From NCBI GenBank assembly GCA_036508755.1, contig DATCGV010000044.1, positions 560-64,559 of the forward strand: a DNA stretch of 64,000 nt, given 5' to 3'. The notes under the pieces were generated by a model that was not told where the DNA came from, did not search any database, and worked only from the letters and a program-made list of their open reading frames with translations. The translations under genes and the position numbers were made by a program. This document shows positions 1,167 to 38,030 of the stretch, in pieces. Origin of the DNA: Candidatus Limnocylindrales bacterium (GTDB taxonomy: Bacteria; Chloroflexota; Limnocylindria; Limnocylindrales; CSP1-4). How positions within the stretch are numbered: position 1 is the first letter of the stretch; each line of letters opens with the position of its first letter.

Positions 1167-2111
1167 ATGACCGAGCGAACCGCGGCGGCAATCGACGTCG
1201 GCAGCAACAGCGTCCATCTTCTCGTCGCGCGCGCCCGGCGCGCCGTGCGCCTCGGAACGCGCACGGACCTGATCGCGCTCGCCGACGAGAGCGAGCTGAT
1301 CGGCCTGGGCGATTCGGTTGACGCGGGCGGCAGCATCCCGCCCGGGCCGCTCGATCTCGTGGTGGCGGCGCTCGAGCGGCAGGTATCCGTGGCGCGCAGC
1401 GCCGGCGCGGAACGCATCGTCATCGTCGGCACCGAGCCGCTGCGCCGGGCTTCCAACACGAGCACGCTCATCCTCGCCGTCGAGCGCGGGCTGGGCGAGG
1501 AGCTGCGCGTGATCGACGTCCGACAGGAGGCCCAGCTGACGTTCGTCGGCGTGTGCGGCGGCACGAATCCTGACGAAGCGCTGGCGGTAGTCGACATCGG
1601 CGGTGGCTCGACCGAGGTCGCGATCCACGTGCCTGGACGAGAGCTCGAGGTAGTTCCCCTGCCGCTCGGTTCGGCGCGCCTGACGAACTCCCTCGTGCGC
1701 CACGATCCGCCGACGAGCGACGAGATCGCGTCGCTCATCAAGGCAGCCGTGAGCGTCGTTCACGACGCTGCGTGGCCCAAGAACGATGGGCCGCCCATCC
1801 GGCGGGCGATCTTCGTGGGCGGCACCGCGACCAACGTCGCGCGCCTGGGCCGCCTCGACCGCGCCCATCTCAACGAGGACCTGAACACGATCGGTCAGAT
1901 GCCCGCCGACACGGTCGTCGAGCACTTCGGAGTGCGGCCGCGCCGCGCTCGCCAGCTCGCGGCGGGCGTTGCGATCGTGTCGGCGCTGCTCGACCGCTTC
2001 CTGCTTGGTGTGGCCGACGTGAGCGAAGCCAGCCTGCGCGACGGCGCGATCATCGCCGCCCTGGCGCGCGGCCCGGACTGGCTCGCGGCAGTCGACGAGC
2101 TGACGAGCTGA
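1167..2111 (+). CDS. Ppx/GppA family phosphatase (short exopolyphosphatase/pppGpp phosphohydrolase type)
   Basis: N-terminal AAIDVGSNSVHLLVA and DIGGGSTE motifs typical of Ppx/GppA actin-fold phosphatases; ATG at 1167; 314 aa. Confidence 0.8.
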   Translation: MTERTAAAIDVGSNSVHLLVARARRAVRLGTRTDLIALADESELIGLGDSVDAGGSIPPGPLDLVVAALERQVSVARSAGAERIVIVGTEPLRRASNTSTLILAVERGLGEELRVIDVRQEAQLTFVGVCGGTNPDEALAVVDIGGGSTEVAIHVPGRELEVVPLPLGSARLTNSLVRHDPPTSDEIASLIKAAVSVVHDAAWPKNDGPPIRRAIFVGGTATNVARLGRLDRAHLNEDLNTIGQMPADTVVEHFGVRPRRARQLAAGVAIVSALLDRFLLGVADVSEASLRDGAIIAALARGPDWLAAVDELTS

Positions 2112-2444: not shown

Positions 2445-3491
2445 TTGTCAACCGTTCAGGGCGCGCGCTCGCCTTGCGGACAGGTCGTGGCGTATGATCG
2501 GGTCGTGACGCGCATCATCGACGCACCCGACAAGTCCTCCTCGGAACGCCAGGCGAGCGCGCTCGTGCGCGCCTGGGAGGGTCGGGCCGACGGCATCCAG
2601 TCGATCGTCGAGCGTCTCGGCGGGGTCGACCAGGTGGGCATCGAGGAGCGCGTCGACAGCCTCAAGAAGCGATCGATCAAGAAGGAATCCAAGCTCTGGG
2701 CGCTCGACCTCGCGATCCGGATGATGGACCTGACGACGCTCGAGGGGAAGGACACCGAGGGCAAGGTGCGCGCGATGTGCGCCAAGGCGATCCGCCCTGA
2801 TCCATCAGATCCAACCATCCCGAGCGTCGCCGCAGTGTGCATCTATCCGGCGCTGATATCGGTCGCCAAGAGCGCCCTCGAGGGCTCGAATGTGAAGGTC
2901 GCCAGCGTCGCCACGGGCTTCCCGTCAGGCCAGACGTTCACCGACGTCAAGCTGCTCGAAACGCGCCAGGCGGTTGTCGCCGGCGCAGACGAGATCGACA
3001 TGGTCATCGATCGCGGCGCTTTCCTGCAGGGTGACTACCGCCACGTGTTCGATGAGATCGTCGCTGTCAAGGAAGCGTGCGGATCGGCTCACCTGAAAGT
3101 CATCCTCGAAACCGGCGAGCTCGAAACGTACGACAACGTCCGCCGTGCGAGCATCCTGGCGATGGCCGCCGGGGCGGACTTCATCAAGACCTCGACGGGC
3201 AAGGTCACCCCGGCGGCGACGATGCCGGTGATGCTCGTCATGCTCGAGGCGATCCGCGACTTCAACAGGCGGACCGGTCGGCTGGTCGGCATGAAGCCAG
3301 CTGGCGGCATCCGCACGGCCAAGGAAGCGATCCAGTTCCTGACGATCCTGTACGAGACGCTCGGTCCGCGCTGGATGACGCCCGATTTGTTCCGGTTCGG
3401 CGTGAGCAGCCTGCTCAACGATGTGCTGATGCAGATCCGCAAGGAGCGCACGGGCGCCTACCAGGGACCCGACTACTTCACGCTCGACTGA
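2445..3491 (+). CDS. deoC: deoxyribose-phosphate aldolase, long form with about 100 aa N-terminal extension
   Basis: Core DeoC features: MMDLTTLEG..., active-site FIKTSTGK (Schiff-base Lys) and AGGIRT; ORF start at 2445 is TTG, true start uncertain (alternative GTG near 2500). Confidence 0.75.
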   Translation: MSTVQGARSPCGQVVAYDRVVTRIIDAPDKSSSERQASALVRAWEGRADGIQSIVERLGGVDQVGIEERVDSLKKRSIKKESKLWALDLAIRMMDLTTLEGKDTEGKVRAMCAKAIRPDPSDPTIPSVAAVCIYPALISVAKSALEGSNVKVASVATGFPSGQTFTDVKLLETRQAVVAGADEIDMVIDRGAFLQGDYRHVFDEIVAVKEACGSAHLKVILETGELETYDNVRRASILAMAAGADFIKTSTGKVTPAATMPVMLVMLEAIRDFNRRTGRLVGMKPAGGIRTAKEAIQFLTILYETLGPRWMTPDLFRFGVSSLLNDVLMQIRKERTGAYQGPDYFTLD

Positions 3492-3530
3492 GTCGCCACC
3501 GCGGCGAGCCCGGAGGTAATCGGACCCCGC

Positions 3531-4070
3531 TCAGTCGGAGCGAAGCCTCGAATAGATGACCAGGTCGTGGTAGGCGCCGCCGCGGAACTGCGACCCGCGG
3601 TTGACGCCCTCGCGCGTGAAGCCGGCCTTCTCGAGGGCATGCTGCTCGGGCAGGTTGTCGATGTCCGTCTGCGCCTCGACTCGGTTGGCGTTGGTCGAGA
3701 CGAACAGCCAAGCGGCGAGCAGCCGTTGTGCGTCCGATCCGTAGCCGTGTCCGCGCGCCGCGGGCACGAGATCGATGCCGATGTTCCACGCGCGCGAATC
3801 GTCGGGCGGTCCGTAGTGCACTGCGCGCCATTGGACGGTGCCGACCGGCTCATGGTCGAGGCGCTCCACGATCAGCGTGCCGTTGTAGTCATTGCGCAGC
3901 GGCCCACGAGCGAGAACGTCGCGCGGCGTGCGGCCGATGGGCTGGCCGAAGTCGTTGAAGCCGCCGATGTCGCGCTGCTCGTTGAGCCAGTCGACCAGCT
4001 CAGCGTCGTTGAGGGTGAGGTCACGCAGCCGGACGAGCAGGCCCTCGACCGGCAGGCGAGCGTCAGTCAT
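3531..4070 (-). CDS. GNAT family N-acetyltransferase
   Basis: Acetyl-CoA binding-like region RGHGYGSDAQRLLAAWLF; ATG at 4070 overlaps the TGA of the upstream ketosynthase (ATGACTGA); the track start at 4097 would give a longer overlap. Confidence 0.7.
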   Translation of the reverse strand: MTDARLPVEGLLVRLRDLTLNDAELVDWLNEQRDIGGFNDFGQPIGRTPRDVLARGPLRNDYNGTLIVERLDHEPVGTVQWRAVHYGPPDDSRAWNIGIDLVPAARGHGYGSDAQRLLAAWLFVSTNANRVEAQTDIDNLPEQHALEKAGFTREGVNRGSQFRGGAYHDLVIYSRLRSD

Positions 4071-5331
4071 CGACGGCGGCAAAGGCCAGCGAGGCATTCA
4101 GGCCACCGAAGCCGAACGAGGTGGACAGCACGCCCCTGATCGTGCCCTCCAGCGGCACGGCGCGCAGGCCCGGCAAAGCGGCGGCTGCGCCGGGGTCGAC
4201 GTGCTCGAGGTTGACCGTCCCGGGTGCCCAGCCACGGTCGATGGCCAGGGCCGAGATGGCGGCCTCGATCGCGCCCGACGCACCGAGCGGGTGCCCGTAA
4301 TAGGCCTTTGTGCCACTGACCGGGACGGTTTGCGCGCGCGCGCCAAGGGCACGGGCGATGGCGCGCGCCTCGACCTCGTCGCCGAGCGGTGTCGACGACG
4401 CGTGGGCATTGACGTAGTCGATCTGCACCGCCTTCATGCGGCCGTCGGCGAGGGCGAGGCGCGCTGCGCGCGCGGCCTGGCGGCCATCGGGCCGCGGCTG
4501 AACCATGTGAAAGGCATCGCTCGTCGCCGCGTACCCGCGCAGCTCGGCGTAGGGCCGCGCGCCACGCCTCCGCGCGACAGGTTCGGCCTCGAGGACGAGG
4601 AGCGCGGCGCCCTCGCCCATGACGAAGCCGTCCCGGTCGGCATCGAACGGCCGCGCCGCGCTCGCGGGGGCGTCGTTCCGGCCCGCGCTCAGGGCGCGAA
4701 TGATGTCGAAGGCTCCAAATGCAAGCGGGCTGAGGGGCACTTCCACGCCTCCCGCGAGCGCGGCGTCCGCGCTTCCAGAGCGGATCAGCCTGAGTGCCTC
4801 GCCGATCGCCACTGCCCCGGCGGCGCACGAGTTGGCCGTCGACAGGATCGGGCCATGGAGTCCGAGAGCAATGCCCACGTTGGCCGGCGCGGCGCCGCCG
4901 AAGACGGCGAGGGCAAGGTTGGGCGCCACGGACCTGATGCCACGGGCGATGTAGCGCTCGTGCTGCTGCTCGGCATACGCGATCCCGCCCAGGGCCGACC
5001 CGACGTAGACCGCGAAGCGGTCGGCACGGGCGGCTCCGCGCTGGCCAACCTCGAGGCCCGCGTCGAGCAGTGCCAGCCGCCCGGCCGCGAGCGCGAACTG
5101 GCTGAAGCGGTCCGTCTGCCGGGCGGCGCGGGCGTCCATGAAGTCGGTCGGCTCGAAATCGTCGATCTGGGCGGCGACCTGCGAGCGGAACGGAGCTGGA
5201 TCGAAGCGGTCGATGCGCTTGACCGCAGACCTGCCGGCGTGCAGGCCGGCTAGGAAGGCGTCGCGACCGATGCCGATCGGCGTGACGACTCCGATGCCCG
5301 TGATCCACACGCGGCGCGACCTGTCGCTCAC
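4063..5331 (-). CDS. beta-ketoacyl-ACP synthase I/II family condensing enzyme (FabF-like)
   Basis: RRVWITGIGVVTPIG N-terminus; catalytic Cys (LSTANSCAAGAVAIGEA), His (VNAHASSTPLGD) and His (YYGHPLGASG) triad present; C-terminal FGFGGLNASL. The first 136 aa of the track ORF look non-coding. Chosen start is GTG at 5331 in a GTGA overlap with the SRPBCC stop. Confidence 0.8.
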   Translation of the reverse strand: MSDRSRRVWITGIGVVTPIGIGRDAFLAGLHAGRSAVKRIDRFDPAPFRSQVAAQIDDFEPTDFMDARAARQTDRFSQFALAAGRLALLDAGLEVGQRGAARADRFAVYVGSALGGIAYAEQQHERYIARGIRSVAPNLALAVFGGAAPANVGIALGLHGPILSTANSCAAGAVAIGEALRLIRSGSADAALAGGVEVPLSPLAFGAFDIIRALSAGRNDAPASAARPFDADRDGFVMGEGAALLVLEAEPVARRRGARPYAELRGYAATSDAFHMVQPRPDGRQAARAARLALADGRMKAVQIDYVNAHASSTPLGDEVEARAIARALGARAQTVPVSGTKAYYGHPLGASGAIEAAISALAIDRGWAPGTVNLEHVDPGAAAALPGLRAVPLEGTIRGVLSTSFGFGGLNASLAFAAVDD

Positions 5332-5813
5332 GTCGCGCTCGTCCCGGTCGGTGTCTGCTCGGCGATCTGCTTGAACCTTGCCAGCGTGCGGCCGGCGATG
5401 GGTCGTACGAACCAGCGATCGGCGATGCGCGGGAACAGCTCGTCGCCGAGGAGCGGGAGGTGGCGCGTGAAGTCGTGCACGATCGCCACGTTCGAGCCGT
5501 GCAGGCCGGCAGGCGTGATGTGCCAGGTCACGTCCATGCCCCGTGTCGGACCGCAGGTGTGGACGAAGCGCAGACGAAGGTCGGCTGGGTCCGAAGCGTC
5601 GGCCCAGGTTCGTGCCCGCCAGCTCACGGGAACTCCCAGCGGCCCGAATCGGCGCGTCGCTTTCATCCTCGCTTCTGTCTCGTCGCCGTTGCGTGACAGG
5701 ACGGTCACCTGTCGGTAATGCGGCAGCAGCTCGGGCCATCGGCCGACGTCCCGGGCGAGCTCGAAGACTCGCTCGCCCGGCGCGTCGACGCTGATCTCAA
5801 TCCGCGAGCGCAA
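5328..5813 (-). CDS. SRPBCC superfamily protein (polyketide cyclase/dehydrase-like, Polyketide_cyc2-type)
   Basis: IEISVDAPGERVFELARDVGRWPELLPHYRQVTV...WHITPAG... pattern typical of SRPBCC/polyketide_cyc2; probable TTG start at 5813 (MRSRIEISV) overlapping the NUDIX stop; start uncertain. Confidence 0.6.
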   Translation of the reverse strand: MRSRIEISVDAPGERVFELARDVGRWPELLPHYRQVTVLSRNGDETEARMKATRRFGPLGVPVSWRARTWADASDPADLRLRFVHTCGPTRGMDVTWHITPAGLHGSNVAIVHDFTRHLPLLGDELFPRIADRWFVRPIAGRTLARFKQIAEQTPTGTSAT

Positions 5814-6234
5814 CTTCTGACGCTTCCAGGTATTCGAGCGTTGGTGCCAGGAGCGGCACGATGGGCAGCTCGCGCACCTCCGACAGCGGTACCCACGCCG
5901 CCATGTCGGTCGACTCCTCGATCTCGTGACGGATCGAGCCGCCCGTGATGCGCACGAGGTAGACGATCTGGATGCCGTGGAATGGGCCCCAGCCGCGCTC
6001 GGGTAGCGGGCCGCGAGTCCATGAGCCGACAAACGCGAGGCGCTCGATCTCGCCGGTCAGCCCCGTCTCCTCCTCGAGCTCCCGGCGCACGGCAAGAGCA
6101 GGGTCCTCACCGAAGTGGATGCCACCGCCGGGCAGGGTCCACATACCGACCGACGGGTAGCCCGGCGCGATGCGCACCATCAGGAGCTGCTGAGCCTCGT
6201 CGACGACTACCGCGTAGGCCGCGATGCGCGTCAT
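5797..6234 (-). CDS. NUDIX hydrolase
   Basis: Nudix box GGGIHFGEDPALAVRRELEEETGL (GX5EX7REUXEEXGU); ATG at 6234 verified; 145 aa. Confidence 0.75.
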   Translation of the reverse strand: MTRIAAYAVVVDEAQQLLMVRIAPGYPSVGMWTLPGGGIHFGEDPALAVRRELEEETGLTGEIERLAFVGSWTRGPLPERGWGPFHGIQIVYLVRITGGSIRHEIEESTDMAAWVPLSEVRELPIVPLLAPTLEYLEASEVALAD

Positions 6235-6257
6235 CGGCGCCAGTTCGGGCTGGTCGC

Positions 6258-7484
6258 TCACGGTGCGAGGACTCGGGCGAGGAAACGTGGGTCGAGCGCC
6301 TTGCTCGCCGGCGCCTGGTCGGCGAGCACGGCCGTCAGCTGCTGGCGCAGGTCGACGCGCCGTTCGAGTCGGCGCAGCGCGTAATCGAGAACGACTGGCT
6401 TGGCGATGAAAGCCTGCAGCACGAGCGAGAACACGTTCTTGCTCCGAAAACGCGATCGAACCCGACGATCGTAGACCGCCAACGCGTTCCGGTCTGTGGA
6501 CAGCCAGCGGTCGATCGCTTCGGCCGCAAGCGCCGCGGTCACCAGCGCCCGATGGAGGCCTTCTCCGGTGAGCGGGTCGATGAACTCGATAGCGTCGCCG
6601 ACGAGCAGCCAGCCGTGGCCTGCGGCACGAGTCACGTGATGCTCCAGCCGGCCGGCGACCTGTGCTTCGTCCGTCCTTGGCGCCGTCGACCAGCGATGTG
6701 CCTGCGACGCGGCGGCCATCACCTCGTCGACGACCGGTTCGACGCCGCCCTGAAGACGCTCCGTGGGCACGACGATGCCGACGTTGACACGGTCGCCCGG
6801 AACCGGCGCCAGGCCGACGTACCACCCGGCGCCGAGCACGAACGTGCCCGTCATCTGCACTCCCTGTGGCGCCGCGTCCATGTCGCGGACGTGGAAGGTG
6901 ATGCCGGCTCGACCGAGCCAGCTGCGCTCGCTTGCTACGCCCGCGGCACGAGCCACGCGAGATCCGCGGCCATCGGCGCCAACAACGACGCGTGCCTGGA
7001 TCAGTTCGTCGGGCGGCGCCTCACCGCCAGTGGCCGTCGATGCGATGACGAGTTGGTGTGAGTTGCGGCCAGAGCCCAACACCACCTCGCGCACCACACA
7101 TTCGCGGTGAACCTCCGCGCCGGCACGGCCAGCGTGCTCGAGCAGCTCTTGGTCGAGCCGCGTCCGATCAAAACCGCACGCGAAGCCGGCGCGGTACTCG
7201 AGGTTGCAGACCTGCCCGCGCGCCGAACGGAGTTCCATCGCGGAGATCGGGCGGTGCAGATCCGCGACCAGGTCGCGGCCCAGGCCGAGCGCGATCAGTC
7301 GCGAGCGGACGAGGGGAGAGGCGAAGACGCCGCACGCCCGCCAGCGCGGTTTGGCGTGGCGCTCGAGGATTGCCACCCGATAACCGAGCCGCGCGAGATG
7401 GGTCGCTGTCGCCGCGCCGGCCGGGCCGCCGCCCACGATGGCGACATCGACTTCGTCAGCCACCTGCCTGTTGCTCGGGGACAA
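6258..7484 (-). CDS. FAD-dependent oxidoreductase, geranylgeranyl-reductase-like family
   Basis: DVAIVGGGPAGAATATHLARLGYRVAILER dinucleotide-binding motif, GADGRGS and GDAIEFIDPLTGEG motifs; start TTG at 7484 or GTG at 7463 (GTGGCTGA overlap with methyltransferase stop). Confidence 0.7.
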   Translation of the reverse strand: MSPSNRQVADEVDVAIVGGGPAGAATATHLARLGYRVAILERHAKPRWRACGVFASPLVRSRLIALGLGRDLVADLHRPISAMELRSARGQVCNLEYRAGFACGFDRTRLDQELLEHAGRAGAEVHRECVVREVVLGSGRNSHQLVIASTATGGEAPPDELIQARVVVGADGRGSRVARAAGVASERSWLGRAGITFHVRDMDAAPQGVQMTGTFVLGAGWYVGLAPVPGDRVNVGIVVPTERLQGGVEPVVDEVMAAASQAHRWSTAPRTDEAQVAGRLEHHVTRAAGHGWLLVGDAIEFIDPLTGEGLHRALVTAALAAEAIDRWLSTDRNALAVYDRRVRSRFRSKNVFSLVLQAFIAKPVVLDYALRRLERRVDLRQQLTAVLADQAPASKALDPRFLARVLAP

Positions 7485-8136
7485 AGACGAGCGCGTAGCG
7501 GTAACCCGGCCGCGTTCCGTATCGGGCGACCGGCCGCAGCCCGGCCTGCTGCGCCATGCGCACGAGTTCCTTCTCGGTATATGCCCGGCGCACGGACAGT
7601 GGCGCGTCGTGGCGCGTGTACTGGTTGCGCGTTGCGATCCGCGTCAGCAACCACGCGCCGGCCCACCAGCGCCAGCCTCGGTCGAGGTCATTGATCACGA
7701 CCGCCTGTCGACAGACGCGGCGCATGTGGCTCAGGAATGTGACGGCGGCCGACGGCTCGAGATGGTGAATGACCAACGAAGCGTGAACCACGTCGAACGA
7801 GGCGCTGCTCTCGTCGGGTAGCGCACCCTCGCGAACGACGATCCGGCCGCGACCCTCGACGCGCATGGCTGCCGCGACGATCTCGGGCCGAATGTCAGTA
7901 GCCGTGATCTCGCGACCGTCGCGCGCAAGTCGGAGCGGAATATCGGCGCCGCCCGTGCCAACGTCGAGGATGCTCAGCGCGAAGCTGTTCAGCGCCAGCG
8001 GAGCGACCGCGCGCTCCGACAGATCCGCGCCGCCGAGCCAGCGATTTATGCGTGCCAGGTCGCGCAGGTTGCCGGCGAGAAGCTGTTCGTCGAGCCGTCC
8101 GTCGAGAAGCTCATGCCCTCCTTCAAGTCGTCGCAT
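7456..8136 (-). CDS. class I SAM-dependent methyltransferase
   Basis: LDVGTGGADIP (motif I) and FDVVHASLVIHH; ATG at 8136 verified. Confidence 0.7.
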   Translation of the reverse strand: MRRLEGGHELLDGRLDEQLLAGNLRDLARINRWLGGADLSERAVAPLALNSFALSILDVGTGGADIPLRLARDGREITATDIRPEIVAAAMRVEGRGRIVVREGALPDESSASFDVVHASLVIHHLEPSAAVTFLSHMRRVCRQAVVINDLDRGWRWWAGAWLLTRIATRNQYTRHDAPLSVRRAYTEKELVRMAQQAGLRPVARYGTRPGYRYALVFVPEQQAGG

Positions 8137-8163
8137 CGGTGAACTCTAGTCGCTTAGTGCAAC

Positions 8164-8184
8164 AAGTGACGCTTCGGTCACATA
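8164..8184. promoter_or_regulatory. inverted repeat AAGTGAC-gcttcg-GTCACATA in the divergent promoter region between the methyltransferase operon and the aldehyde dehydrogenase operon; same half-sites as the ArsR-proximal palindrome at 2412-2431
   Basis: Seen directly in sequence; shares GTGAC-N6-GTCACATA with the 2412-2431 site. Confidence 0.4.
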
Positions 8185-8225
8185 ATGAGTGGCGCTTTGG
8201 GATCACCGGGTGTAGTGTTGGCCCG

Positions 8226-9797
8226 ATGGCCGCCCGCAAAGACTCGACCGGTAGTCGCGAACCCTCGTCGGCGCTCGCTCGGCGCACATCGCCGGACGTC
8301 GGTCGGGGAACACAGTCGCCCAACAGCTGGGCACTTGGCGACGGCCAGCAGATCCCGTGGGAGTACGCGCCGGCGCCGGAGTCGCGCGATGTCGTCCAGC
8401 TCAAGTCGCGTTACGGGCTGTTCATCGGCGGCAAGGAGGTCGCACCGCGCAGCGGGCAGTGGTTCACGACGGTCGATCCATCGACGGAGGAGCCGCTCGC
8501 GGAGATCGCGCGCGCGAGCGTTGCGGACGTCGATCAGGCCGTCACCGTCGCCCGGCGCGCGTTCAAACGGGAGTGGGGCACGCTGCGCGGCAGCGAGCGC
8601 GCCAAGTACCTGTTCCGCATCGCGCGCATCCTCCAGGAACGCAGCCGTGAGTTTGCCGTGCTCGAGTCGCTCGACGGCGGCAAACCGATCAAGGAGTCGC
8701 GCGACGTGGACGTGCCGCTCGCCGCGGCACACTTCTGGTACTACGCGGGCTGGGCGGACAAGCTCGAGTACGCCTTCCCGAACCGCGATCCGCAGCCGCT
8801 CGGCGTCTGTGCGCAGGTCATCCCGTGGAACTTCCCGCTGCTCATGCTCGCCTGGAAGATCGCGCCGGCGCTCGCCGCTGGCAACACGGTCGTGCTCAAG
8901 CCGGCCAGCTCGACCCCGTTGAGCGCGCTCTTCTTCGCCGACGTGTGCCGCCAGGCAGACCTGCCGCCCGGTGTCGTCAACATCATCACCGGGCCGGGCG
9001 AGATAGGCCTCGCCCTCGTCAAGCATCCCGATGTCGACAAGGTCGCCTTCACCGGCTCGACGTCCGTGGGCAAGGAGATCGGCCGTGCAGTCGCGGGCAC
9101 CGACAAGGCGCTGACGCTCGAGCTGGGCGGCAAGGCGGCCAACATCGTCTTCGACGACGCGCCCATCGACCAGGCCATCGAGGGCGTGGTCAACGGCATC
9201 TTCTTCAACCAGGGCGAGGTGTGCTGCGCGGGAAGTCGCCTCTTCGTCCAGGAGTCGATCGCCGATTCGTTCGTCGAACGGCTGAAGGACCGACTGTCCA
9301 CCCTGCGCGTGGGCGACCCGCTGGACAAGAACACCGACGTCGGCGCGATCAACAACGCCGCCCAGCTGGCCAAGATCGAGGAGTTGGTGGAAGCGGGGAT
9401 CGCGGAGGGCGCCGACATGTACCAGCCGGCGTGCGAGCTCCCCGCGCGGGGATGGTTCTTCCGACCGACGCTGTTCACCAACGTCGCACAGTCGAGCCGC
9501 ATCGCCCAGGAAGAGATTTTCGGGCCGGTGCTGTCCGTCTTGACTTTCCGCACGCCGGCCGAAGCGCTCGAGAAAGCCAACAACACGGCGTACGGCCTTT
9601 CGGCCGGGGTCTGGACCGAAAAGGGCAGCCGCATCCTGGACATGGTCAGCAAGCTCCGCGCCGGCGTCGTCTGGGCGAATACGTTCAACCGCTTCGACCC
9701 GACCTCGCCGTTCGGTGGCTACAAGGAGTCGGGCTTCGGACGCGAGGGCGGGCTGCACGGCCTGCTGGCCTACCTGGATCTCGGAGCTGGTCACTGA
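8226..9797 (+). CDS. aldehyde dehydrogenase family protein (NAD(P)+ dependent)
   Basis: ELGGKAANIVFDDAP and catalytic FFNQGEVCCAGSRLFV (Cys) motifs; KPASSTPLSALF; probable ATG at 8226 (MAARKD...); the longer track ORF from 8052 would overlap the divergent methyltransferase. Confidence 0.8.
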   Translation: MAARKDSTGSREPSSALARRTSPDVGRGTQSPNSWALGDGQQIPWEYAPAPESRDVVQLKSRYGLFIGGKEVAPRSGQWFTTVDPSTEEPLAEIARASVADVDQAVTVARRAFKREWGTLRGSERAKYLFRIARILQERSREFAVLESLDGGKPIKESRDVDVPLAAAHFWYYAGWADKLEYAFPNRDPQPLGVCAQVIPWNFPLLMLAWKIAPALAAGNTVVLKPASSTPLSALFFADVCRQADLPPGVVNIITGPGEIGLALVKHPDVDKVAFTGSTSVGKEIGRAVAGTDKALTLELGGKAANIVFDDAPIDQAIEGVVNGIFFNQGEVCCAGSRLFVQESIADSFVERLKDRLSTLRVGDPLDKNTDVGAINNAAQLAKIEELVEAGIAEGADMYQPACELPARGWFFRPTLFTNVAQSSRIAQEEIFGPVLSVLTFRTPAEALEKANNTAYGLSAGVWTEKGSRILDMVSKLRAGVVWANTFNRFDPTSPFGGYKESGFGREGGLHGLLAYLDLGAGH

Positions 9798-10294
9798 TGT
9801 CTGATTCGCCGCGCCGCGCCTTCGTCTCGCGCCGGTCGGACGGCGAGCACCTGTGGTCGCTCGGCGGCCATTTCACGACGAAGCTGTCCGGGGAGCAGAG
9901 CGACGGTGGGTTCGCGCTGGTTGAAGCGATCGCGTTCCGTTCGACCGAGCCGCCCCTGCACATCCACACCCGCGAAGACGAGGCCTGGTACGTGCTCGAC
10001 GGCCAGATGACGCTCTACGTTGGTGATGAGTCGTTCGTCGTGCCGAGTGGAACGTTCGCCTTCGCGCCGCGCGGGCAGGCGCACGCGTTCACCGTCGACA
10101 TCGAACCGACCCGCGTGCTCGTGTTCGCGACACCGGCCGGGTTTGAGCATTTCGCCCAGGAGCTGGGCACTCCCGCAACGGGCGAGACGCCACCAGCCGA
10201 TCTGTCCGTACCGTCGCCCGACGAGCTCGGCCCGATCGGGGAGCGCTACGGCATCCAGGTCGTCGGGCCGCCGGTCAGGTTGCGCAATGGCTGA
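9797..10294 (+). CDS. cupin domain protein
   Basis: PLHIHTREDEAWYVLDGQM...APRGQAHAF two-motif cupin signature (G(X)5HXH(X)3,4E(X)6G ... PXGXXHXXXN-like); ATG overlaps the ALDH stop (TGATG). Confidence 0.65.
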   Translation: MSDSPRRAFVSRRSDGEHLWSLGGHFTTKLSGEQSDGGFALVEAIAFRSTEPPLHIHTREDEAWYVLDGQMTLYVGDESFVVPSGTFAFAPRGQAHAFTVDIEPTRVLVFATPAGFEHFAQELGTPATGETPPADLSVPSPDELGPIGERYGIQVVGPPVRLRNG

Positions 10295-11213
10295 GCGGCA
10301 CCCCAAGACGGTCATCGCAGATCCACTGGCACCGGCGCGCATCCCTGTGCGCAAGACGTACAAGCTGTACGTCGGCGGGCAATTCCCGCGCTCGGAGTCC
10401 GGGCGCAGCTACATCGTCCGTGCCGCAGACGGGACGCCGCTCGTCAACGCCGTGCGCTCGTCTCGGAAAGATGTGCGCGACGCGGTGCGCACGGCGCGCG
10501 GGGCCGTGGCGGGTTGGTCGGGCAAGACGGCGATGAACCGCGGCCAGGTCCTGTACCGCGTGGCTGAGCTGATGGAAGGGCGCCGCGCGCAGTTCGTCGA
10601 AGAGGTCACCGCGGCCGAAGGGCTGTCGCCTGCCGACGCCACCGCCCAGGTTGACCGAGCGATAGATCGCTGGGTCTGGTACGCCGGTTGGGCCGACAAG
10701 ATCAGCCAGGTGCTGGGAACGGTCAACCCCGTCGCCGCCCCGTACTTCAACTTCAGCATCCCGGAGCCGACCGGGGTCGTGGGTGTCGTCGCGCCAGAAT
10801 CGTCGTCACTTCTGGGACTCATCTCGCGCGTCGCGCCGGTCGTCGTCAGTGGCAACGCCGCGGTCGTGCTCGCGTCGGAGTCACGGCCACTGCCGGCCGT
10901 GACGCTGGGCGAAGTGCTCGCCACGTCGGACGTTCCTGCCGGCGTCATCAACATCTTGACCGGCCTGCGCAAAGAGCTCGTGCCCACCCTCGCGGCGCAC
11001 ATGGATGTCAACGCGATCGACACGTGGGGCGTGCCGCGCGACATGCGTGCGCAGGTCGAGACCAGTGCCATCGAGAACGTCAAACGCGTCACTCGCCCGC
11101 CGCGTGGCGTCGATGACCGCTACGACTGGCTGGATGACCGCCGCGCGCAGCGGCCGGAGTGGATCGCCGCGTACCTCGAGATCAAGACGGTCTGGCACCC
11201 CATAGGGATGTGA
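10287..11213 (+). CDS. aldehyde dehydrogenase-like protein truncated after the NAD-binding domain (catalytic domain absent)
   Basis: N-terminal ALDH fold (KLYVGGQF..., VVSGNAAVVLASE..., GVINILTG, ...KRVTRP aligned to ALDH ...KRVTLELGGK) but the ORF ends about 40 aa later with no catalytic Cys/Glu region; ATG at 10287 overlaps the cupin stop (ATGGCTGA). Confidence 0.55.
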   Translation: MAERHPKTVIADPLAPARIPVRKTYKLYVGGQFPRSESGRSYIVRAADGTPLVNAVRSSRKDVRDAVRTARGAVAGWSGKTAMNRGQVLYRVAELMEGRRAQFVEEVTAAEGLSPADATAQVDRAIDRWVWYAGWADKISQVLGTVNPVAAPYFNFSIPEPTGVVGVVAPESSSLLGLISRVAPVVVSGNAAVVLASESRPLPAVTLGEVLATSDVPAGVINILTGLRKELVPTLAAHMDVNAIDTWGVPRDMRAQVETSAIENVKRVTRPPRGVDDRYDWLDDRRAQRPEWIAAYLEIKTVWHPIGM

Positions 11214-11866
11214 CCAGAAGCCAAGATATTCGGCCTCGACGCTGGTATCAGAGGCCGTCGGGCACCACGCCCAGCGAGCGACGCTGGCTGGTCGCAACCG
11301 GCGCGGCCGCGCTCGCTCTTTTCGTGGCGCTCGCAGTCTGGGCACATGACGTTGTCACGCCGGCATGGGAGCTGGACCTCGTCAACTTCGCGCATCTACA
11401 GCCGAACCTGGCGGGAGACGTCCTGAATGGCATCAACACGCTGGGCAACCCGGTCAACTGGATCGTGCTGCTCGCCGTGCTGGCCATCGCGGTCGGCCTC
11501 CTGCGCGGGACTCGGGCCGGCGTGTTCGTCGGCGCCACCTATGCGGTTGACTTCGTGGCCACGCTGACCAAGTACTACGTCCAGCGCGGCCGACCCGACA
11601 CGGAGGCGACTCATGCGCTCTTCGGCGTCGATAGCTACGGATTCCCGAGCGGGCATACGGCGCGCGCGGCGGCGCTCGCAGGAGCTCTGGTCTGGATCTT
11701 CGTACCGGCGCGCTGGCGGCTGCCATTGGCGATCGTCAGCGCCCTTGTCGGCGGCCTGATGATGGGCTACGCGCGCGTCGCGTTCGGCGTTCACTTCCCG
11801 ACTGACACGCTTGGCGGACTGCTGCTGGGCATTTGCTGGTTCGCCCTCAGCGCAGCGCTCGTCTGA
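11159..11866 (+). CDS. PAP2 family phosphatase (membrane)
   Basis: Three PAP2 motifs: KYYVQRGRPD (KX6RP), PSGHTARAAA (PSGH), YARVAFGVHFPTD (SRX5HX3D-like); start uncertain (55-nt overlap with the upstream gene if 11159). Confidence 0.7.
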   Translation: MDRRVPRDQDGLAPHRDVTRSQDIRPRRWYQRPSGTTPSERRWLVATGAAALALFVALAVWAHDVVTPAWELDLVNFAHLQPNLAGDVLNGINTLGNPVNWIVLLAVLAIAVGLLRGTRAGVFVGATYAVDFVATLTKYYVQRGRPDTEATHALFGVDSYGFPSGHTARAAALAGALVWIFVPARWRLPLAIVSALVGGLMMGYARVAFGVHFPTDTLGGLLLGICWFALSAALV

Positions 11867-29195: not shown

Positions 29196-31361
29196 CTAAC
29201 CCGCGGGTTGTGGCGTGATCTCGGGCCCCTTGCCCAACCGTTCGGCACCCTCGCTCTCGAGCTGGCGCTCCGACTCCAGCTCCTTGTCCTGGCCGAGCCG
29301 GAGCCGCGTGGCAAAGAGCCAGGCCAGGGCATACAGCGCGGCGACGATCACCAGCAGGAACTGGTAGCCGGTGACGAGCGCCACGTACTCGATCGCGCCG
29401 CCCACGACCGCGCCCAGCAGGTTGCTGGCGAACGACATGTCGGCCATCGTCGACTCGCGGAACGAGTAGCTGAAGACCAGGTTGGCGAAGAAGATCGGCG
29501 CGAAGGCGAGAGCAACCGCGGCCAGGTAGCGCAACCAGGCCGGGTCGAAGATGAGCGACTCGGGCGGGATGATGAACGCCACCAGGAGCGAGACGAAGAG
29601 GGCTATGTAGAAAAGCGTCGGTTTCCGAATCGGGAACCTGTAGTTGACCAGGATGGCTAACAAGACGCTGCACAGGATGCCGAAGAACGAGAGCGAGTTG
29701 ACGATCCAGGTCGTGCCGAAGAGCAGGCTGAAGCTGGTCACGCTGCGTGTATTGAGTAACAGGAAGGCAACGCCCAGGACGAAGAAGTGCGGGCTGAACT
29801 TGCGGATGGTCGTGCCCGTGAACCTGGCTGCGGCCGCGACCGCGACAAGCGCGCCGAGGAGCACGATCGCCAGCGCAAAGATGTAGTAATCGGCCACGAA
29901 TGGCGTGCGCAGGTAGAGGAACGGCCAGTCGTCCGTGGCGGGCGTTGGCGTGGGATCGCCCACGGCGGGAATCGCACTGACGACGTCGCCGGGCGGCTGT
30001 CCGTTGGGCAGCGCGGCGACGAGCGGTCCGTCGGCCAGGGCCGCCTCGGTGTTGTTGTAGATGCGCACGAGCGGCTGCGTGCCGTTGAAGGACGACTGGA
30101 GCATGCTCGCGAGCTTGGTCACGAGCCAGTTGTCGCGGTAGTAGTTGTAGAGCACGAAAACGCCGTCAGGCGCGAGATGATCGCGCACCGTCTGGAAGGC
30201 CTGGAGCGTGAACAGGAACGACTCGAGACGCACGCTCGACTGCTGGCTGACCAGCGTCAGTGAGTCGGGCAGGGCGAAGATGACGAGGTCGTACTTGCTG
30301 TTGTTGGTGCGCAGGAACGCCCTGCCGTCGTTGTTGTAGGCAGTCACCCGCGGATCGCTGTAGGGGCGGTTGGGGTGCTGCTGCTCGCCAATCTGGAGCA
30401 GCTTCGGGTCGATCTCGACCGCATCGACGTGCCCCGCGTTGTGGGCCAGGGCGATTGCAACGTCAGAGCCGCTGCCCGCGCCGACGATGAGCACGTTCGC
30501 ATACGTGCGGCCCGGGAACCAGTTGTAGATCTGGTTGTAGAACGGCTCGAGGCCCGGCTGGCCCACGGGATGAAGGGCCTGGTGCGGAATGCCGTCGACC
30601 GTCAGCTGGGTGACGCCGCCCTGGTCCTTGTATTCGTTGATCCGGTAGTACGGCGACCAGATGTCGCTCGAGTGCGCCTGGCCCTGCTGGATGACGAGCA
30701 GCAGCACGGCAGCCAGGGCGGCGACGTTGACGAGCGTCAACGGGTTGAACCGGCGGCCCAGCTCGAGCGCCAGCACGATGATGACGGCAACCGTGAACCA
30801 GACGACTGGATCTGTGCCCAGGGCGGACAGGACCGTGAAGCTGGCAATGCCGGCCAGCGAGCCGCAGATGTCGATCGCGTAGGCCTTGAGCGGCGGCATG
30901 CTTTTGAGCAGCGGGCCCAAAGGCAGGGCCAATGTCGCGAGCAGGGACACGATGAGCGCCACGATCAGCGGCAGGATCAGGAAGTTCTGGTCCGCCGCAC
31001 TGCTCTCGGCAAGGCCGAAGAAGAGCTCGTCCTGGGATTTGACCTGGACGTTGAGCTGGAACGTGAAGACGTACAGCACGACCGCGGCGAGCAGGATGGC
31101 GAACGGCGAGATGCGCGGGTTGAAGCCGTTGCGGCCGATGAGGATGCCGAGGCCGATGCCCAGGAAGGAAGCGATCAGCAGGAAGTTGCTGAAGAAGCCG
31201 ATGTACTTGACGTTGGACGGGATCCAGCGGATGAGCAGCAGCTCCACGAACAGGATCGCGAAGCTGGTCAGGAAGAGCCTGACCTCGTTACGCCGTAGCA
31301 CCGTCAAAAGAGCCAATGGAATGGCCGCTCCTCTCTCATGGCTCTGTCGCCGAGCCGTCAC
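29196..31361 (-). CDS. polytopic membrane protein fused to a spermidine synthase-like (SpeE-type SAM methyltransferase fold) domain
   Basis: Central VLIVGAGSGSDVAIALAHNAGHVDAVEIDPKLLQIGE...FALPDS SpeE signature flanked by many TM helices; start uncertain (GTG at 31361 chosen; TTG/GTG alternatives at about 31318 and 31303). The track ORF N-terminus overlapping trxB was rejected. Confidence 0.65.
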   Translation of the reverse strand: MTARRQSHERGAAIPLALLTVLRRNEVRLFLTSFAILFVELLLIRWIPSNVKYIGFFSNFLLIASFLGIGLGILIGRNGFNPRISPFAILLAAVVLYVFTFQLNVQVKSQDELFFGLAESSAADQNFLILPLIVALIVSLLATLALPLGPLLKSMPPLKAYAIDICGSLAGIASFTVLSALGTDPVVWFTVAVIIVLALELGRRFNPLTLVNVAALAAVLLLVIQQGQAHSSDIWSPYYRINEYKDQGGVTQLTVDGIPHQALHPVGQPGLEPFYNQIYNWFPGRTYANVLIVGAGSGSDVAIALAHNAGHVDAVEIDPKLLQIGEQQHPNRPYSDPRVTAYNNDGRAFLRTNNSKYDLVIFALPDSLTLVSQQSSVRLESFLFTLQAFQTVRDHLAPDGVFVLYNYYRDNWLVTKLASMLQSSFNGTQPLVRIYNNTEAALADGPLVAALPNGQPPGDVVSAIPAVGDPTPTPATDDWPFLYLRTPFVADYYIFALAIVLLGALVAVAAAARFTGTTIRKFSPHFFVLGVAFLLLNTRSVTSFSLLFGTTWIVNSLSFFGILCSVLLAILVNYRFPIRKPTLFYIALFVSLLVAFIIPPESLIFDPAWLRYLAAVALAFAPIFFANLVFSYSFRESTMADMSFASNLLGAVVGGAIEYVALVTGYQFLLVIVAALYALAWLFATRLRLGQDKELESERQLESEGAERLGKGPEITPQPAG

Positions 31362-33510: not shown

Positions 33511-34293
33511 CTACTTGAACAGATCCATCTCCCGGGGCATGACTACCTCGGCCGTGACGGAGCCCTCAGTGGCTTTGAAGTCGACGCCGCGGACGAGGAC
33601 GACGGGCTGCTGGCTGGTCTTGCTCGCTGCGAGTTCGGCAGCTGAGCAGATCTCGTCGGCCAGGGCGACGATCGTCGAGTGCATCAGCCGGCCGTCGGCG
33701 TCCGGCCGGCCGCGCCAGTCGACGAGCGGCGCGATGCCTGCCACGCCGAGCGCCACGTCGACGATGCCGAAGCGCCACGGCCGGCCAAAGGAGTCACTGA
33801 CGATGACCGCCGGCGCGTTCTTCGTGTTCAGGTTCAGGCGCATGGCCAGTCCGTCGCGGATCTGACGTGCCGATGCATCCGGATCGTCGGGCAGCAACGT
33901 GACGAGATCGCCACGGCCGGTGTTGGAGGCATCGACGCCGGCGTTGGCGCACACGAAGCCATGTTTCGTGCGGCTGATGACGATGCCGCGCGCCATGCGC
34001 AGGACCTGCGCCGATTCGCGCAGGACCACCTCCACCTGGCGCGCGTCGCGGTCCCAGCGCTCGGCAAACTCGACCGCCTCGGCCCGGGGCTCGACCGTTG
34101 TCAGGTCGACAAGGCGGCCTTCCGCCTTCGAGACGACCTTCTGGGTCACGACGAGGATGTCGCCGGGCCGTGGCGCGAGAGCGGGCTGCTCGCGGACGAG
34201 GGCACGCCAGGCGTCGGCGATCAGGGCGGCCAGGTCGTCACCCCTCGCGACCTCCGGCAGCGCCGGCAGGGGAACGGCGAGGATCGTGGGCAC
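33511..34293 (-). CDS. cofE: coenzyme F420-0:L-glutamate ligase (stand-alone CofE, not an FbiB fusion)
   Basis: CofE-family pattern (ILVVTQKVVSKAEGR..., ISRTKHGFVCANAGVDASN, VIVSDSFGRPWRFG); GTG at 34293 one nt after the cofC stop. The first about 115 aa of the track ORF were rejected. Confidence 0.75.
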   Translation of the reverse strand: MPTILAVPLPALPEVARGDDLAALIADAWRALVREQPALAPRPGDILVVTQKVVSKAEGRLVDLTTVEPRAEAVEFAERWDRDARQVEVVLRESAQVLRMARGIVISRTKHGFVCANAGVDASNTGRGDLVTLLPDDPDASARQIRDGLAMRLNLNTKNAPAVIVSDSFGRPWRFGIVDVALGVAGIAPLVDWRGRPDADGRLMHSTIVALADEICSAAELAASKTSQQPVVLVRGVDFKATEGSVTAEVVMPREMDLFK

Positions 34294-34294
34294 G

Positions 34295-35005
34295 CTAGCG
34301 ACCGGCGGCGAAGACGAGCTCGCGCGCCAGCTCGTCGCCGATCGCCTCGAGCTCCATCTGTCTGGCCGGATCGAGCCTTTCCAGGTCCTCGGGCGTGTCA
34401 AGGTCGAAGCCGAGTTGCGCGTCGTCAACGACTTGTACGCTGGCATGCGCGGCGGCCGCCGCGCGCAGATGCGCCTCGAAGCTCTCCTCCCCGAAGTGCG
34501 GCTCGATCGTGGACGGTGGAGTGACGAGCAGCGCGTTGGTGCCTGTTCGCGCATCTGCGGGCGCGATCGCGACCAGCGGCCGGCCGTTGCCGGCCGCGAG
34601 CGCGGCGTCCGCTGCGGCGAGCAGGTTGTCGAGCGACGCATGGTTGATGAGCGGCAGGTCGGCCGGGACCATCAGAACGGCCGTCGCGCCGGCCGCGAGC
34701 GCAGCATCGCGGCCGGCGCGCAGCGCGCCGTTGAGGCCGCTGCCCGGATCCGCGACGAAACCTATGGAACCGAAACCCCGGGCAATTACGTCTAGCTCCG
34801 AATTGCTCGCAGTGACTACATGGACGAACCGGCATGGCTCCCAGCCGGTCAGCACGTGTATGGTGTTCGCCAGCATGCCGAGGACGAGAGCGTCTCGTTC
34901 CTCGGGATCGAGTGCGAAACCAAGTCGAGATTTCGCGGCCTCACGCGAGCGGATGGGTAGCACGGCGTGCAGCACGCTCAGGCGGGCTTGCGACGACCGG
35001 CTCAC
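34295..35005 (-). CDS. cofC: 2-phospho-L-lactate (or PEP) guanylyltransferase
   Basis: MobA-like NTP-transferase fold; AVLPIRSREAAKSRLG N-terminus typical of CofC/FbiD. Confidence 0.7.
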   Translation of the reverse strand: MSRSSQARLSVLHAVLPIRSREAAKSRLGFALDPEERDALVLGMLANTIHVLTGWEPCRFVHVVTASNSELDVIARGFGSIGFVADPGSGLNGALRAGRDAALAAGATAVLMVPADLPLINHASLDNLLAAADAALAAGNGRPLVAIAPADARTGTNALLVTPPSTIEPHFGEESFEAHLRAAAAAHASVQVVDDAQLGFDLDTPEDLERLDPARQMELEAIGDELARELVFAAGR

Positions 35006-35059
35006 AGGGCGATGGTAAGGCCGCGAGTGTTACAGCACCGCGTGCTAAAAGGAGGGCAA

Positions 35060-35620
35060 ATGGTCTCATTCAGACGGGCGCTGGTGGCGGGCGTGGCGAC
35101 ACTCGTTTTCGCCGGTGCATGCACGAGCATCAGCGCGCCGACGATCCCGCCAATCAGCATACCCACGATCCCACCGATCGGGCTGCCTGGCGTCGGTGGT
35201 AGCTTTCCGCCGATCGTTCTCCCGAGCGGCCTCGTGATCCCGCCCGGCCTTTTCCCGTCGGTTGACGCGAGCACCGGGGTGTGCCTGCTGGCCTCGCCGG
35301 CCGAAGTAAGCAGCATCTTCGGCTCCACCGCGACGGTGACGAGCAACGACAGCAATAGTTGCACGTACACGTTCTCCAACTTTGCCACGATCGTGATCAC
35401 GACCGACACCGGCGACCTGGCCGGCGCGCAGGTGCTCTTCGGAAGCACCGCCAAGCAGATTCAGGTCGGCAACGATGCGGCCCTGACCGGCGTCTTCATC
35501 GGGCAACCCGGTGTGTACGTCCAGCGCGGACAGAACCAGCTCCAGATCCAGGGCGTCCTGACCGGGTCAGACGACGCGACGATGGCCAAGCTCGTCCAGG
35601 TCGCGACGCTGGCCGACTGA
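35060..35620 (+). CDS. lipoprotein, hypothetical (Pro-rich repeats PTIPPI)
   Basis: Lipobox VFAGACT; strong RBS AAGGAGGG 6 nt upstream of ATG at 35060; 13-bp palindrome AGCACCGCGTGCT just upstream. Confidence 0.45.
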   Translation: MVSFRRALVAGVATLVFAGACTSISAPTIPPISIPTIPPIGLPGVGGSFPPIVLPSGLVIPPGLFPSVDASTGVCLLASPAEVSSIFGSTATVTSNDSNSCTYTFSNFATIVITTDTGDLAGAQVLFGSTAKQIQVGNDAALTGVFIGQPGVYVQRGQNQLQIQGVLTGSDDATMAKLVQVATLAD

Positions 35621-35657
35621 CGCTGGCAGCCGTAGTCGACCCGCGCATGAAGCGCGC

Positions 35658-36614: not shown

Positions 36615-36624
36615 CGGGCTGCCC

Positions 36625-37614: not shown

Positions 37615-38030
37615 CAGCTGGGGCTCCCATGGACCAGGACCCGGTCGGGTCGGAGGATGAACGTCACACGCGGTTCGGTGCGGAAGCGCGCGATCTCGCG
37701 CTCGGCCATCTCATCCGCGTCGTAGCGCCGCGCCATCTCGGCGATGTCGGCCTGGGCGCGCTCATCGTCATAGGTCTGCTCGACGTGGCACTCGACGGTC
37801 ACCGCGTCCTCGGCCTCGAAGACGGTCAGGTTGGCGCGGCCGTCGTGTTCCAGGTTGCTCGGCCAGCGCCGGCCGCGCCGCGAGTTGACGACGAGATGCT
37901 CGCCGAGCGGCTCGTCAGAGCGCAGCAGGAACCAGATCACGATCTGGTGCGGGCTTCCGTCGGGATTGATCGTCGCGATCGTCGCGTAGCGCGCTGGGCG
38001 CGTCAGGAACGATCGGACGTGCGCGTCCAT
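37614..38030 (-). CDS. PPOX class F420-dependent oxidoreductase (pyridoxamine 5'-phosphate oxidase-like split barrel)
   Basis: About 139 aa; pattern ATIATINPDGSPHQIVIWF typical of F420-binding PPOX-class proteins; TGATG junction with the fgd start. Confidence 0.65.
   Translation of the reverse strand: MDAHVRSFLTRPARYATIATINPDGSPHQIVIWFLLRSDEPLGEHLVVNSRRGRRWPSNLEHDGRANLTVFEAEDAVTVECHVEQTYDDERAQADIAEMARRYDADEMAEREIARFRTEPRVTFILRPDRVLVHGSPS

Follow-up and report, generated by a model that had tools for sequence, protein, structure and literature searches.

In a 64,000-nucleotide stretch of a Candidatus Limnocylindrales bacterium contig (DATCGV010000044.1, assembly GCA_036508755.1; this whole stretch is hereafter the window), direct reading of the minus strand of positions 3400-8300 revealed six consecutive genes. 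They encode an S-adenosylmethionine (SAM)-dependent methyltransferase (MT), a flavin adenine dinucleotide (FAD)-dependent oxidoreductase, a NUDIX hydrolase, an SRPBCC protein, a FabF-like beta-ketoacyl synthase (ketosynthase, KS) and a GNAT protein (Table 1), and every family assignment was confirmed by Pfam and NCBIfam profile searches. These six genes, together with the four start/stop overlaps that an earlier note on this DNA had described, were all recovered: the MT and FAD genes overlap by 8 nt (GTGGCTGA, 7463-7456; an in-frame alternative start of the FAD gene is TTG 7484), the NUDIX and SRPBCC genes by 17 nt (5813-5797), the SRPBCC and KS genes by GTGA (5331-5328), and the KS and GNAT genes by ATGACTGA (4070-4063). 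A fifth overlap, GTGA at 6261-6258, joins the FAD and NUDIX genes when the NUDIX gene is given the GTG start of the public gene calls (its alternative start is ATG 6234), and the description of the operon as translationally coupled is hence extended from four junctions to five. The analysis was carried out in silico, and many of the related loci come from metagenome-assembled genomes (MAGs), some of them long-read assemblies with indels that affect apparent fusions and frameshifts.

Table 1. Genes and features at the locus, with positions in the window.
Feature	Coordinates	Strand	Basis or remark
SAM methyltransferase (MT), class I, 226 aa, PRK06202/NF004851-like, core gene 1	8136..7456	-	ATG start, TGA stop
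FAD-dependent oxidoreductase, 401 aa, geranylgeranyl-reductase/QhpG superfamily, core gene 2	7463..6258	-	GTG start
NUDIX hydrolase, 154 aa, variable, accessory or hitch-hiking gene	6261..5797	-	GTG start; PF00293
SRPBCC/helix-grip protein, 161 aa, aromatase/cyclase-like, core gene 3	5813..5328	-	TTG start
FabF-like beta-ketoacyl synthase (KS), 422 aa, Cys-His-His-Lys, core gene 4	5331..4063	-	GTG start; PF00109+PF02801
GNAT (Acetyltransf_3), 179 aa, clade-specific add-on	4070..3531	-	ATG start; Pfam
Divergent intergenic region, 89 bp, MT start to ALDH start, presumed promoter region	8137..8225	.	coordinates
Aldehyde dehydrogenase (ALDH, 523 aa) - cupin_2 - ALDH-like (308 aa) - PAP2 phosphatase	8226-11866	+	overlapping junctions

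The gene calls for the identical public contig (an ENA soil metagenome, L001) agree with our boundaries for five of the genes. The SRPBCC gene appears in public calls on identical contigs as a fragment of 69 or 109 aa with no Pfam match, because its true start is a TTG inside the overlap with the NUDIX gene, and automated annotation of those contigs therefore displays no SRPBCC protein. This TTG start is backed by full-length homologs of 153-161 aa. An Rfam scan gave no match, a promoter scan found no sigma-70-like site, a result that is uninformative for Chloroflexota, and a terminator scan gave a single weak candidate, located in the FAD gene and within chance expectation.

Conservation of the operon was followed across relatives of its KS. 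A scan of one genome per species yielded 304 KS relatives, of which the best 80 loci were kept; nearly all are labelled as Chloroflexota/Limnocylindria-type MAGs, and two carry other phylum labels (L074 and L075). The cassette-bearing loci L032 and L015 belong to the complete chromosomes OY970149.1 and OY969885.1. Presence was counted by tblastn of the window proteins, for genes upstream of KS on the same strand and only in loci long enough. So counted, SRPBCC was found in 78/78 loci, the FAD enzyme in 72/72 and the MT in 69/69, and the order MT-FAD-SRPBCC-KS was kept in all 69 loci that cover the span, within a cassette of 3.6-4.1 kb. The 4-nt overlap between the SRPBCC stop and the KS start was kept in 62 of 83 related loci. 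The NUDIX gene lies inside the cassette in 40 of 72 loci, and the GNAT gene lies downstream of KS in 14 of 72, the closest relatives only. The NUDIX gene is also found several kb upstream of the cassette in L046, L048 and L049, and it is retained in L098, a locus from which the cassette has been deleted. The conserved unit is therefore the four genes MT-FAD-SRPBCC-KS, with NUDIX and GNAT as lineage-specific passengers, and the six-gene functional unit that had been proposed does not hold. The earlier note had staked its claim on co-localisation in other genomes, and the core genes are indeed co-localised; of the KAS-SRPBCC-NUDIX neighbourhood that it singled out (KAS, beta-ketoacyl-ACP synthase), the SRPBCC part is conserved and the NUDIX part is not.

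Outside the cassette, gene content changes from locus to locus and seems to have no relation to lipid synthesis; as read from the sequences, the downstream genes encode, among other things, an MFS transporter together with a MerR regulator, a chromate transporter and DUF2461. Apparent in-frame SRPBCC-KS fusions were observed at L049:7518-9257 (P0452, 579 aa) and L053:7545-9263. At the L053 junction the C-terminal helix is frameshifted, and in L049 a GGAGGAGG run shows a one-base difference; both are probably indel artefacts of long-read assembly, and natural fusions of this kind, probably 1-nt indels, were dropped as Rosetta-stone evidence. In the searchable literature, nothing relevant to the cassette or to Limnocylindria lipids was found.

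The MT was assigned to a family by profile comparison. In addition to its Pfam matches (Methyltransf_25, Methyltransf_11 and Methyltransf_12), its best NCBIfam model is NF004851 (PRK06202) with 127 bits, the next family reaching 37 bits, and its matches to UbiG and MenG are weak. A tblastn search of 72,556 plasmids and secondary replicons revealed six MT homologs, 6/6 within type III polyketide synthase (PKS) clusters: one from Paenibacillus and two from Deinococcus have the order type III PKS-MT-FAD, and in three from Novosphingobium the MT is divergent from a DUF2147-acyl carrier protein (ACP)-KS-type III PKS-FAD monooxygenase series. Those type III PKS-linked MTs that were tested also have NF004851 as their best model, and the one from Deinococcus exceeds its curated cutoff. 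The Mtr of Gimesia maris, taken from a paper's supplement in a form damaged by machine reading, aligns with the window MT in two colinear pieces that span the family motifs and has the ILDxxxGGxD and NDLxR motifs in common with it. Judged by these profile matches, the MT family is that of the tailoring genes in alkylresorcinol operons of the hid/srs type, of which HidA and SrsB are compared here by description and not by sequence. The earlier note could name no canonical pathway for these genes, a statement that can now be sharpened: both the MT family and the MT-FAD pairing and order correspond to the tailoring genes of type III PKS alkylresorcinol operons. As a separate observation, the alphaproteobacterial cluster on plasmid pLA3 of Novosphingobium pentaromativorans (L087:659-5642, also L088 and L089) combines a type III PKS with its own KS and ACP and a divergent PRK06202-type MT, and it is a possible evolutionary intermediate toward the Limnocylindria arrangement.

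The FAD enzyme contains FAD_binding_3 and scores 138.6 bits against TIGR02032, below the cutoff of 158.8, with weak matches to MenJ and the Ubi-hydroxylases. Pairwise, it is 35% identical over 165 aa to the type III PKS-linked FAD enzyme of Paenibacillus (E-value 3e-16) and 24% over 351 aa to that of Novosphingobium (1e-8), and these two enzymes have the same top families, the geranylgeranyl-reductase superfamily and QhpG, as the window enzyme. Two more specific assignments were considered and rejected. A flavin-dependent halogenase was suggested by PDB and plasmid matches, but the WxWxIP motif and the catalytic Lys are absent; the motif region reads G-W/G-Y-V-G-I/L-A-P, and Arg/His-Ala-x, not Lys, precedes the conserved Gly. 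The halogenases that are its best PDB matches reflect a common fold. Geranylgeranyl reductases have a conserved Cys near the flavin (RxxCGG). Across 65 orthologs of the window enzyme this position (Cys44) holds Cys in 34, Gly in 20, Ser in 9 and Ala in 2, and with the TIGR02032 score below cutoff a geranylgeranyl-type reductase was likewise rejected; prenyl tailoring, which had been suggested for this cassette, thus finds no specific support. Since WxWxIP is absent and the reductase-type Cys is variable among orthologs, the most plausible activity predicted for the FAD enzyme is that of a ring hydroxylase.

Sequence and structural comparisons of the SRPBCC protein converge on aromatase/cyclases (ARO/CYCs). 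It matches Polyketide_cyc/Polyketide_cyc2 in Pfam, including PF03364, a family to which COQ10 and RatA also belong. Its best PDB sequence matches are BexL, ZhuI, WhiE-ORFVI and TcmN (E 1e-9 to 1e-5), and in the plasmid collection it matched Streptomyces aromatase/cyclases only. The AlphaFold2 model (pLDDT 87.9) adopts a helix-grip fold whose top Foldseek matches are WhiE-ORFVI, the uncharacterised Thermus protein TTHA0849 at rank two, ZhuI and TcmN, with probability 1.00 and TM 0.65-0.75. Among the orthologs W26, L30, Y33, R54, W65, H85, W97 and H113 are invariant, and the WPELLPHY segment resembles WPELFSEY(35) in TcmN. By sequence and predicted fold, the nearest relatives of this protein are the aromatase/cyclases of type II PKSs, and it is best described as a putative cyclase. 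The IMG name, RatA toxin, was not adopted, the nearest sequence and fold neighbours being ARO/CYCs; an antitoxin partner was not searched for.

The KS consists of the N- and C-terminal ketoacyl-synt domains, and its Cys-His-His-Lys residues are intact in all 80 cassette loci. It is ~49% identical to the FabF proteins of Thermus (1j3n) and Synechocystis and passes the subfamily model PRK07314 (427 against a cutoff of 387), but falls below the TIGR03150 fabF equivalog (441 bits, cutoff 493.75), and PGAP names its orthologs only as 'family protein'. In a search of 1.84 billion representative proteins, its ortholog cluster scored 606 bits and a few sister clusters 307-455 bits (53-58% identity), while ordinary FabFs begin at ~364 bits (44-47% identity), so a score gap separates the ortholog group. 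No Limnocylindria paralog of KS was identified through this search and the names of cluster members, which carried no usable taxonomy.

Lineages that lack its partners show what becomes of KS without them. Two loci, L093 and L094 (P0223; GCA_017853275.1), are syntenic with the window, their ALDH and deoC sharing 78% and 74% identity with the window counterparts, and carry ABC-3, DUF72, the ALDH pair, KS, a chromate transporter, a luciferase-like gene, deoC and Ppx, with no MT, FAD, NUDIX or SRPBCC gene at the locus. Their KS is 49-53% identical to that of the window and has internal deletions, and its catalytic Cys is replaced by Asp, a change confirmed at the codon in the DNA (L093:6264-7433, L094:5873-7042). 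A second cluster, P0446, is 70% identical to P0223 and has the same Asp; because the two have stayed this similar, the Asp form may be maintained as a non-condensing protein, and it might have acquired a new role, for example a CLF-like or decarboxylase-like one. Independently, L098, which is 77-82% identical in DNA to the cassette-bearing L046 and L049, differs from them by a clean 2.4-kb deletion that removes exactly MT-FAD-SRPBCC, and its KS (P0474, L098:8862-10119) has Cys replaced by Gly together with an N-terminal frameshift. With the nucleophile lost in two partner-less lineages, fatty-acid elongation there must depend on another KAS, and the KS would therefore be a dedicated partner of the cassette. 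This bears out the expectation that the KS does not match a housekeeping function, and nucleophile loss accompanying partner loss offers an example of how a dedicated KAS paralog can be separated from FabF without whole genomes.

Genes that would normally accompany a PKS or a fatty-acid synthase were not found at these loci. With three type III PKSs as tblastn queries, no type III PKS was detected in the 64-kb window or, to a distance of ~8 kb from KS, in the 80 related loci, and the Pfam-annotated contig contains no Chal_sti_synt-type gene. Neither Escherichia coli AcpP nor the Novosphingobium ACP had a tblastn match in the window or the 80 loci, and the annotated contig has no PP-binding gene. 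No fab or other fatty-acid synthesis gene occurs in 62 kb of Pfam-annotated contig, and no second KS in the window or the loci, each of which has one KS gene. The picture of a stand-alone FabF-like KS with neither ACP nor fab neighbours is thus upheld by both tblastn and Pfam annotation.

From these comparisons, we tentatively favour a reading of the cassette as a specialised pathway of the phenolic-lipid or polyketide-quinone type, in which KS and a cyclase replace the type III PKS; quite possibly, it is a dedicated and dispensable pathway of the alkylresorcinol/polyketide-quinone type. The general class proposed in the earlier note, a polyketide or lipid cassette, is supported. In the proposed mechanism, the KS would be primed by acyl-ACP from primary fatty-acid synthesis and would elongate the acyl chain from malonyl-ACP, using the housekeeping ACP and with no beta-keto reduction. 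The SRPBCC protein, made by translation coupled to that of KS, would fold and cyclise the poly-beta-keto chain into a phenolic or pyrone head group, the PRK06202-type MT would methylate the ring, and the flavoprotein would oxygenate it to give a methoxylated alkyl-phenol or alkyl-quinone membrane lipid. The tailoring half of this scheme (MT and FAD enzyme) draws on homology of family and operon order to hid/srs-type operons. The scaffold half we infer because KS and SRPBCC fill the slot of the type III PKS, because SRPBCC is ARO/CYC-like and because its gene is tightly coupled to that of KS; iterative non-reducing extension by KS, cyclase activity of SRPBCC, the substrates of the MT and FAD enzyme and the final product are accordingly all predicted.

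Several observations weigh against this scheme. The case is computational throughout, with a product that is predicted only, and we know of no characterised precedent for a lone FabF-like homodimer that makes an unreduced tri- or tetraketide when it has neither a chain-length factor nor a dedicated ACP. With 322 bits against FabF and 271 bits against the actinorhodin KS-alpha, the KS is nearer to FabF, and it is conserved at 70-97% identity where MT, FAD and SRPBCC are conserved at 39-90%. A sister KS (P0122, L091:8001-9272; 58% identity) has an intact Cys and stands alone, with no MT, FAD or SRPBCC gene. (Its own context is a contig of 70.6% GC, with a PTPS-like gene on one side and a luciferase-like monooxygenase on the other.) In L098 deoC is damaged as well, so that the decay there may be partly regional. 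The FAD enzyme is linked to HidB-type enzymes only at the superfamily level, a link that is not specific database-wide, and its sole database-wide plasmid match is a halogenase of an aryl-polyene cluster. Finally, the type III PKS negative extends over the window and the immediate surroundings of KS in the related loci.

This last point bears on the view that the product is a phenolic lipid whose ring comes from a type III PKS encoded at another place in the genome, with KS supplying a special acyl starter and SRPBCC serving as a lipid or quinone carrier of the COQ10-like kind. The match of SRPBCC to PF03364, the family of COQ10 and RatA, is in line with a carrier, and the decay of KS after partner loss fits equally well. 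In the Novosphingobium clusters a type III PKS, a FAD enzyme and a homologous MT occur together with ACP-KS, and the 'S. ferox' operon has a lipid/isoprenoid-binding protein beside its type III PKS (PMC10896814). Yet the type III PKS that this view needs is found neither within ~8 kb of KS in the 80 loci nor in the window, the KS is only 36% identical to that of Novosphingobium and has no ACP beside it, and the nearest sequence and structure neighbours of SRPBCC are catalytic ARO/CYCs and not COQ10-type proteins. We regard this view as unlikely.

Comparably improbable, in our judgement, is that the cassette tailors a non-aromatic lipid or quinone with SRPBCC as a lipid-binding or dehydratase-like partner. 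In one version, KS would be a second elongating KAS that makes an unusual fatty acid, whose chain MT and the FAD enzyme modify in the manner of BfaB/BfaA-like methylation and reduction; this suits a KS that is strongly FabF-like and passes the PRK07314 cutoff. In the other, MT and the FAD enzyme would modify an isoprenoid quinone as MenJ- and UbiG-like enzymes, for which the placement of the FAD enzyme in the geranylgeranyl-reductase superfamily and the weak matches of both proteins (MenJ/Ubi-hydroxylase and UbiG/MenG) can be cited. Against these readings, the MT is not of the CFA-synthase type, and its only strong family, as well as all its plasmid homologs, is linked to type III PKSs; the FAD enzyme has not conserved the Cys of geranylgeranyl reductases; and the cassette has no reductase or dehydratase of the fatty-acid elongation cycle. 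That KS is simply the organism's housekeeping FabF, with unrelated neighbours packed upstream into one operon, is very unlikely: its ~49% identity to bona fide FabFs, its conservation (similar to that of deoC and ALDH), its ancestral syntenic position and the lack of a second KS in the window would all suit such a role, but the catalytic Cys has been lost in two independent Limnocylindria lineages along with deletions or a frameshift, the protein falls below the fabF equivalog cutoff and is a mere 'family protein' to PGAP, and an SRPBCC gene is adjacent to or overlaps it in every one of the 78 loci.

Beyond the cassette, deoC converges on the operon 40 nt downstream, and an ALDH-cupin-ALDH-PAP2 operon diverges from it 89 nt upstream of the MT start. 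Its two ALDH genes are ~30% identical paralogs that stay together next to the KS locus also in relatives with no cassette. A functional link between the cassette and the ALDH-cupin operon was rejected, as the ALDH pair stays in the cassette-less L093 and L094, and genes are often inserted between ALDH and MT, among them a PfkB kinase, a peptidoglycan-binding protein and a Hint-domain protein. An aldehyde intermediate, which had been thought plausible from the divergent arrangement, is not supported, since the ALDH pair keeps its position without the cassette and these often intervening genes are unrelated. A polyphosphate neighbourhood (Ppx-GppA, polyphosphate kinase and a CYTH/CHAD protein) occupies 1167-2111 (+) and continues beyond the window start (L001:15485-19173), and it remains syntenic with the KS locus in distant Limnocylindria, L098 included. 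Further along the window, coenzyme F420 genes (CofD, CofC and the F420 ligase CofE) are interleaved with luciferase-like, F420-dependent-type oxidoreductases and a PNPOx-like protein at ~33511-38030 (-), and a 706-aa protein with a spermine/spermidine-synthase domain lies beside an ABC exporter at 29196-31316 (-).

Among known systems, the cassette most resembles the short alkylresorcinol operons. In hidABC of Cyanobium, which makes hierridin, the MT HidA methylates 5-pentadecylresorcinol, HidB is a FAD oxidoreductase and proposed hydroxylase, and HidC is the type III PKS (PMC6836626, PMC10896814); 58 planctomycete alkylresorcinol operons have the order MT-oxidoreductase-type III PKS (PMC10896814, PMC6836626). 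The window cassette has in common with hidABC and the planctomycete mtr-fdo-t3pks operons the order MT-FAD-condensing enzyme, the MT family and the confinement to one short operon, and srsABC of Streptomyces griseus and the polyketide-quinone cluster of M. smegmatis are of the same kind. For the FAD enzyme this likeness holds at the superfamily level only. The condensing slot differs, as SRPBCC and a FabF-like KAS II stand where these operons have a type III PKS, and substrates would be ACP-bound here and CoA-bound there. With no type III PKS in the window or the related loci, the cassette falls outside the hid/srs family as defined by that enzyme. If real, ring building by a KS and a cyclase may be new, and a FabF-like KS paired with a small cyclase would constitute a new, minimal logic of polyketide formation, one that may escape genome mining based on the established PKS types. 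The Limnocylindria, uncultured and widespread in soil, would also be assigned a lipid trait. Roles in dormancy, hardening of the envelope, tolerance of antibiotics and respiration at low oxygen are described for the alkylresorcinol-type lipids and polyketide quinones of Azotobacter, Streptomyces and mycobacteria (PMC5916927, PMC9927152, PMC6836626).

The type II aromatic PKSs represented by TcmN, WhiE-ORFVI and ZhuI likewise combine a thiolase-fold Cys-His-His KS with a helix-grip ARO/CYC, but the cassette has no KS-beta (chain-length factor), ACP, ketoreductase or further cyclase. From FabF (KAS II), with which the KS agrees in its identity, intact triad and PRK07314 score, it is set apart by its TIGR03150 score, its location outside a fab operon, its coupling to SRPBCC and the loss of the nucleophile in partner-less lineages. 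Resorcinol lipids made independently of type III PKSs by a ketosynthase and a separate aromatising protein are also known from the DarAB/BrtCD systems, a likeness by description and not by homology: the condensation there is head-to-head, whereas elongation is proposed here. DarB is KAS III (FabH)-like. It has been assigned to a phylogenetically distinct ketosynthase class that performs head-to-head condensation, and the brt cluster borrows its acyl-ACP substrates from primary metabolism, with no dedicated ACP (PMC6836626). In the literature cited here, the bacterial routes are the type III PKSs and the DarAB system; more doubtfully than the pathway type itself, the cassette could represent a third route to monoalkyl phenolic lipids or polyketide quinones, in which a homodimeric, FabF-derived KS would iterate on the housekeeping ACP together with a ring-closing monodomain aromatase/cyclase, effectively a 'type II' substitute for the type III PKS of a hid/srs-like operon, fixed across an abundant class of uncultured soil Chloroflexota.

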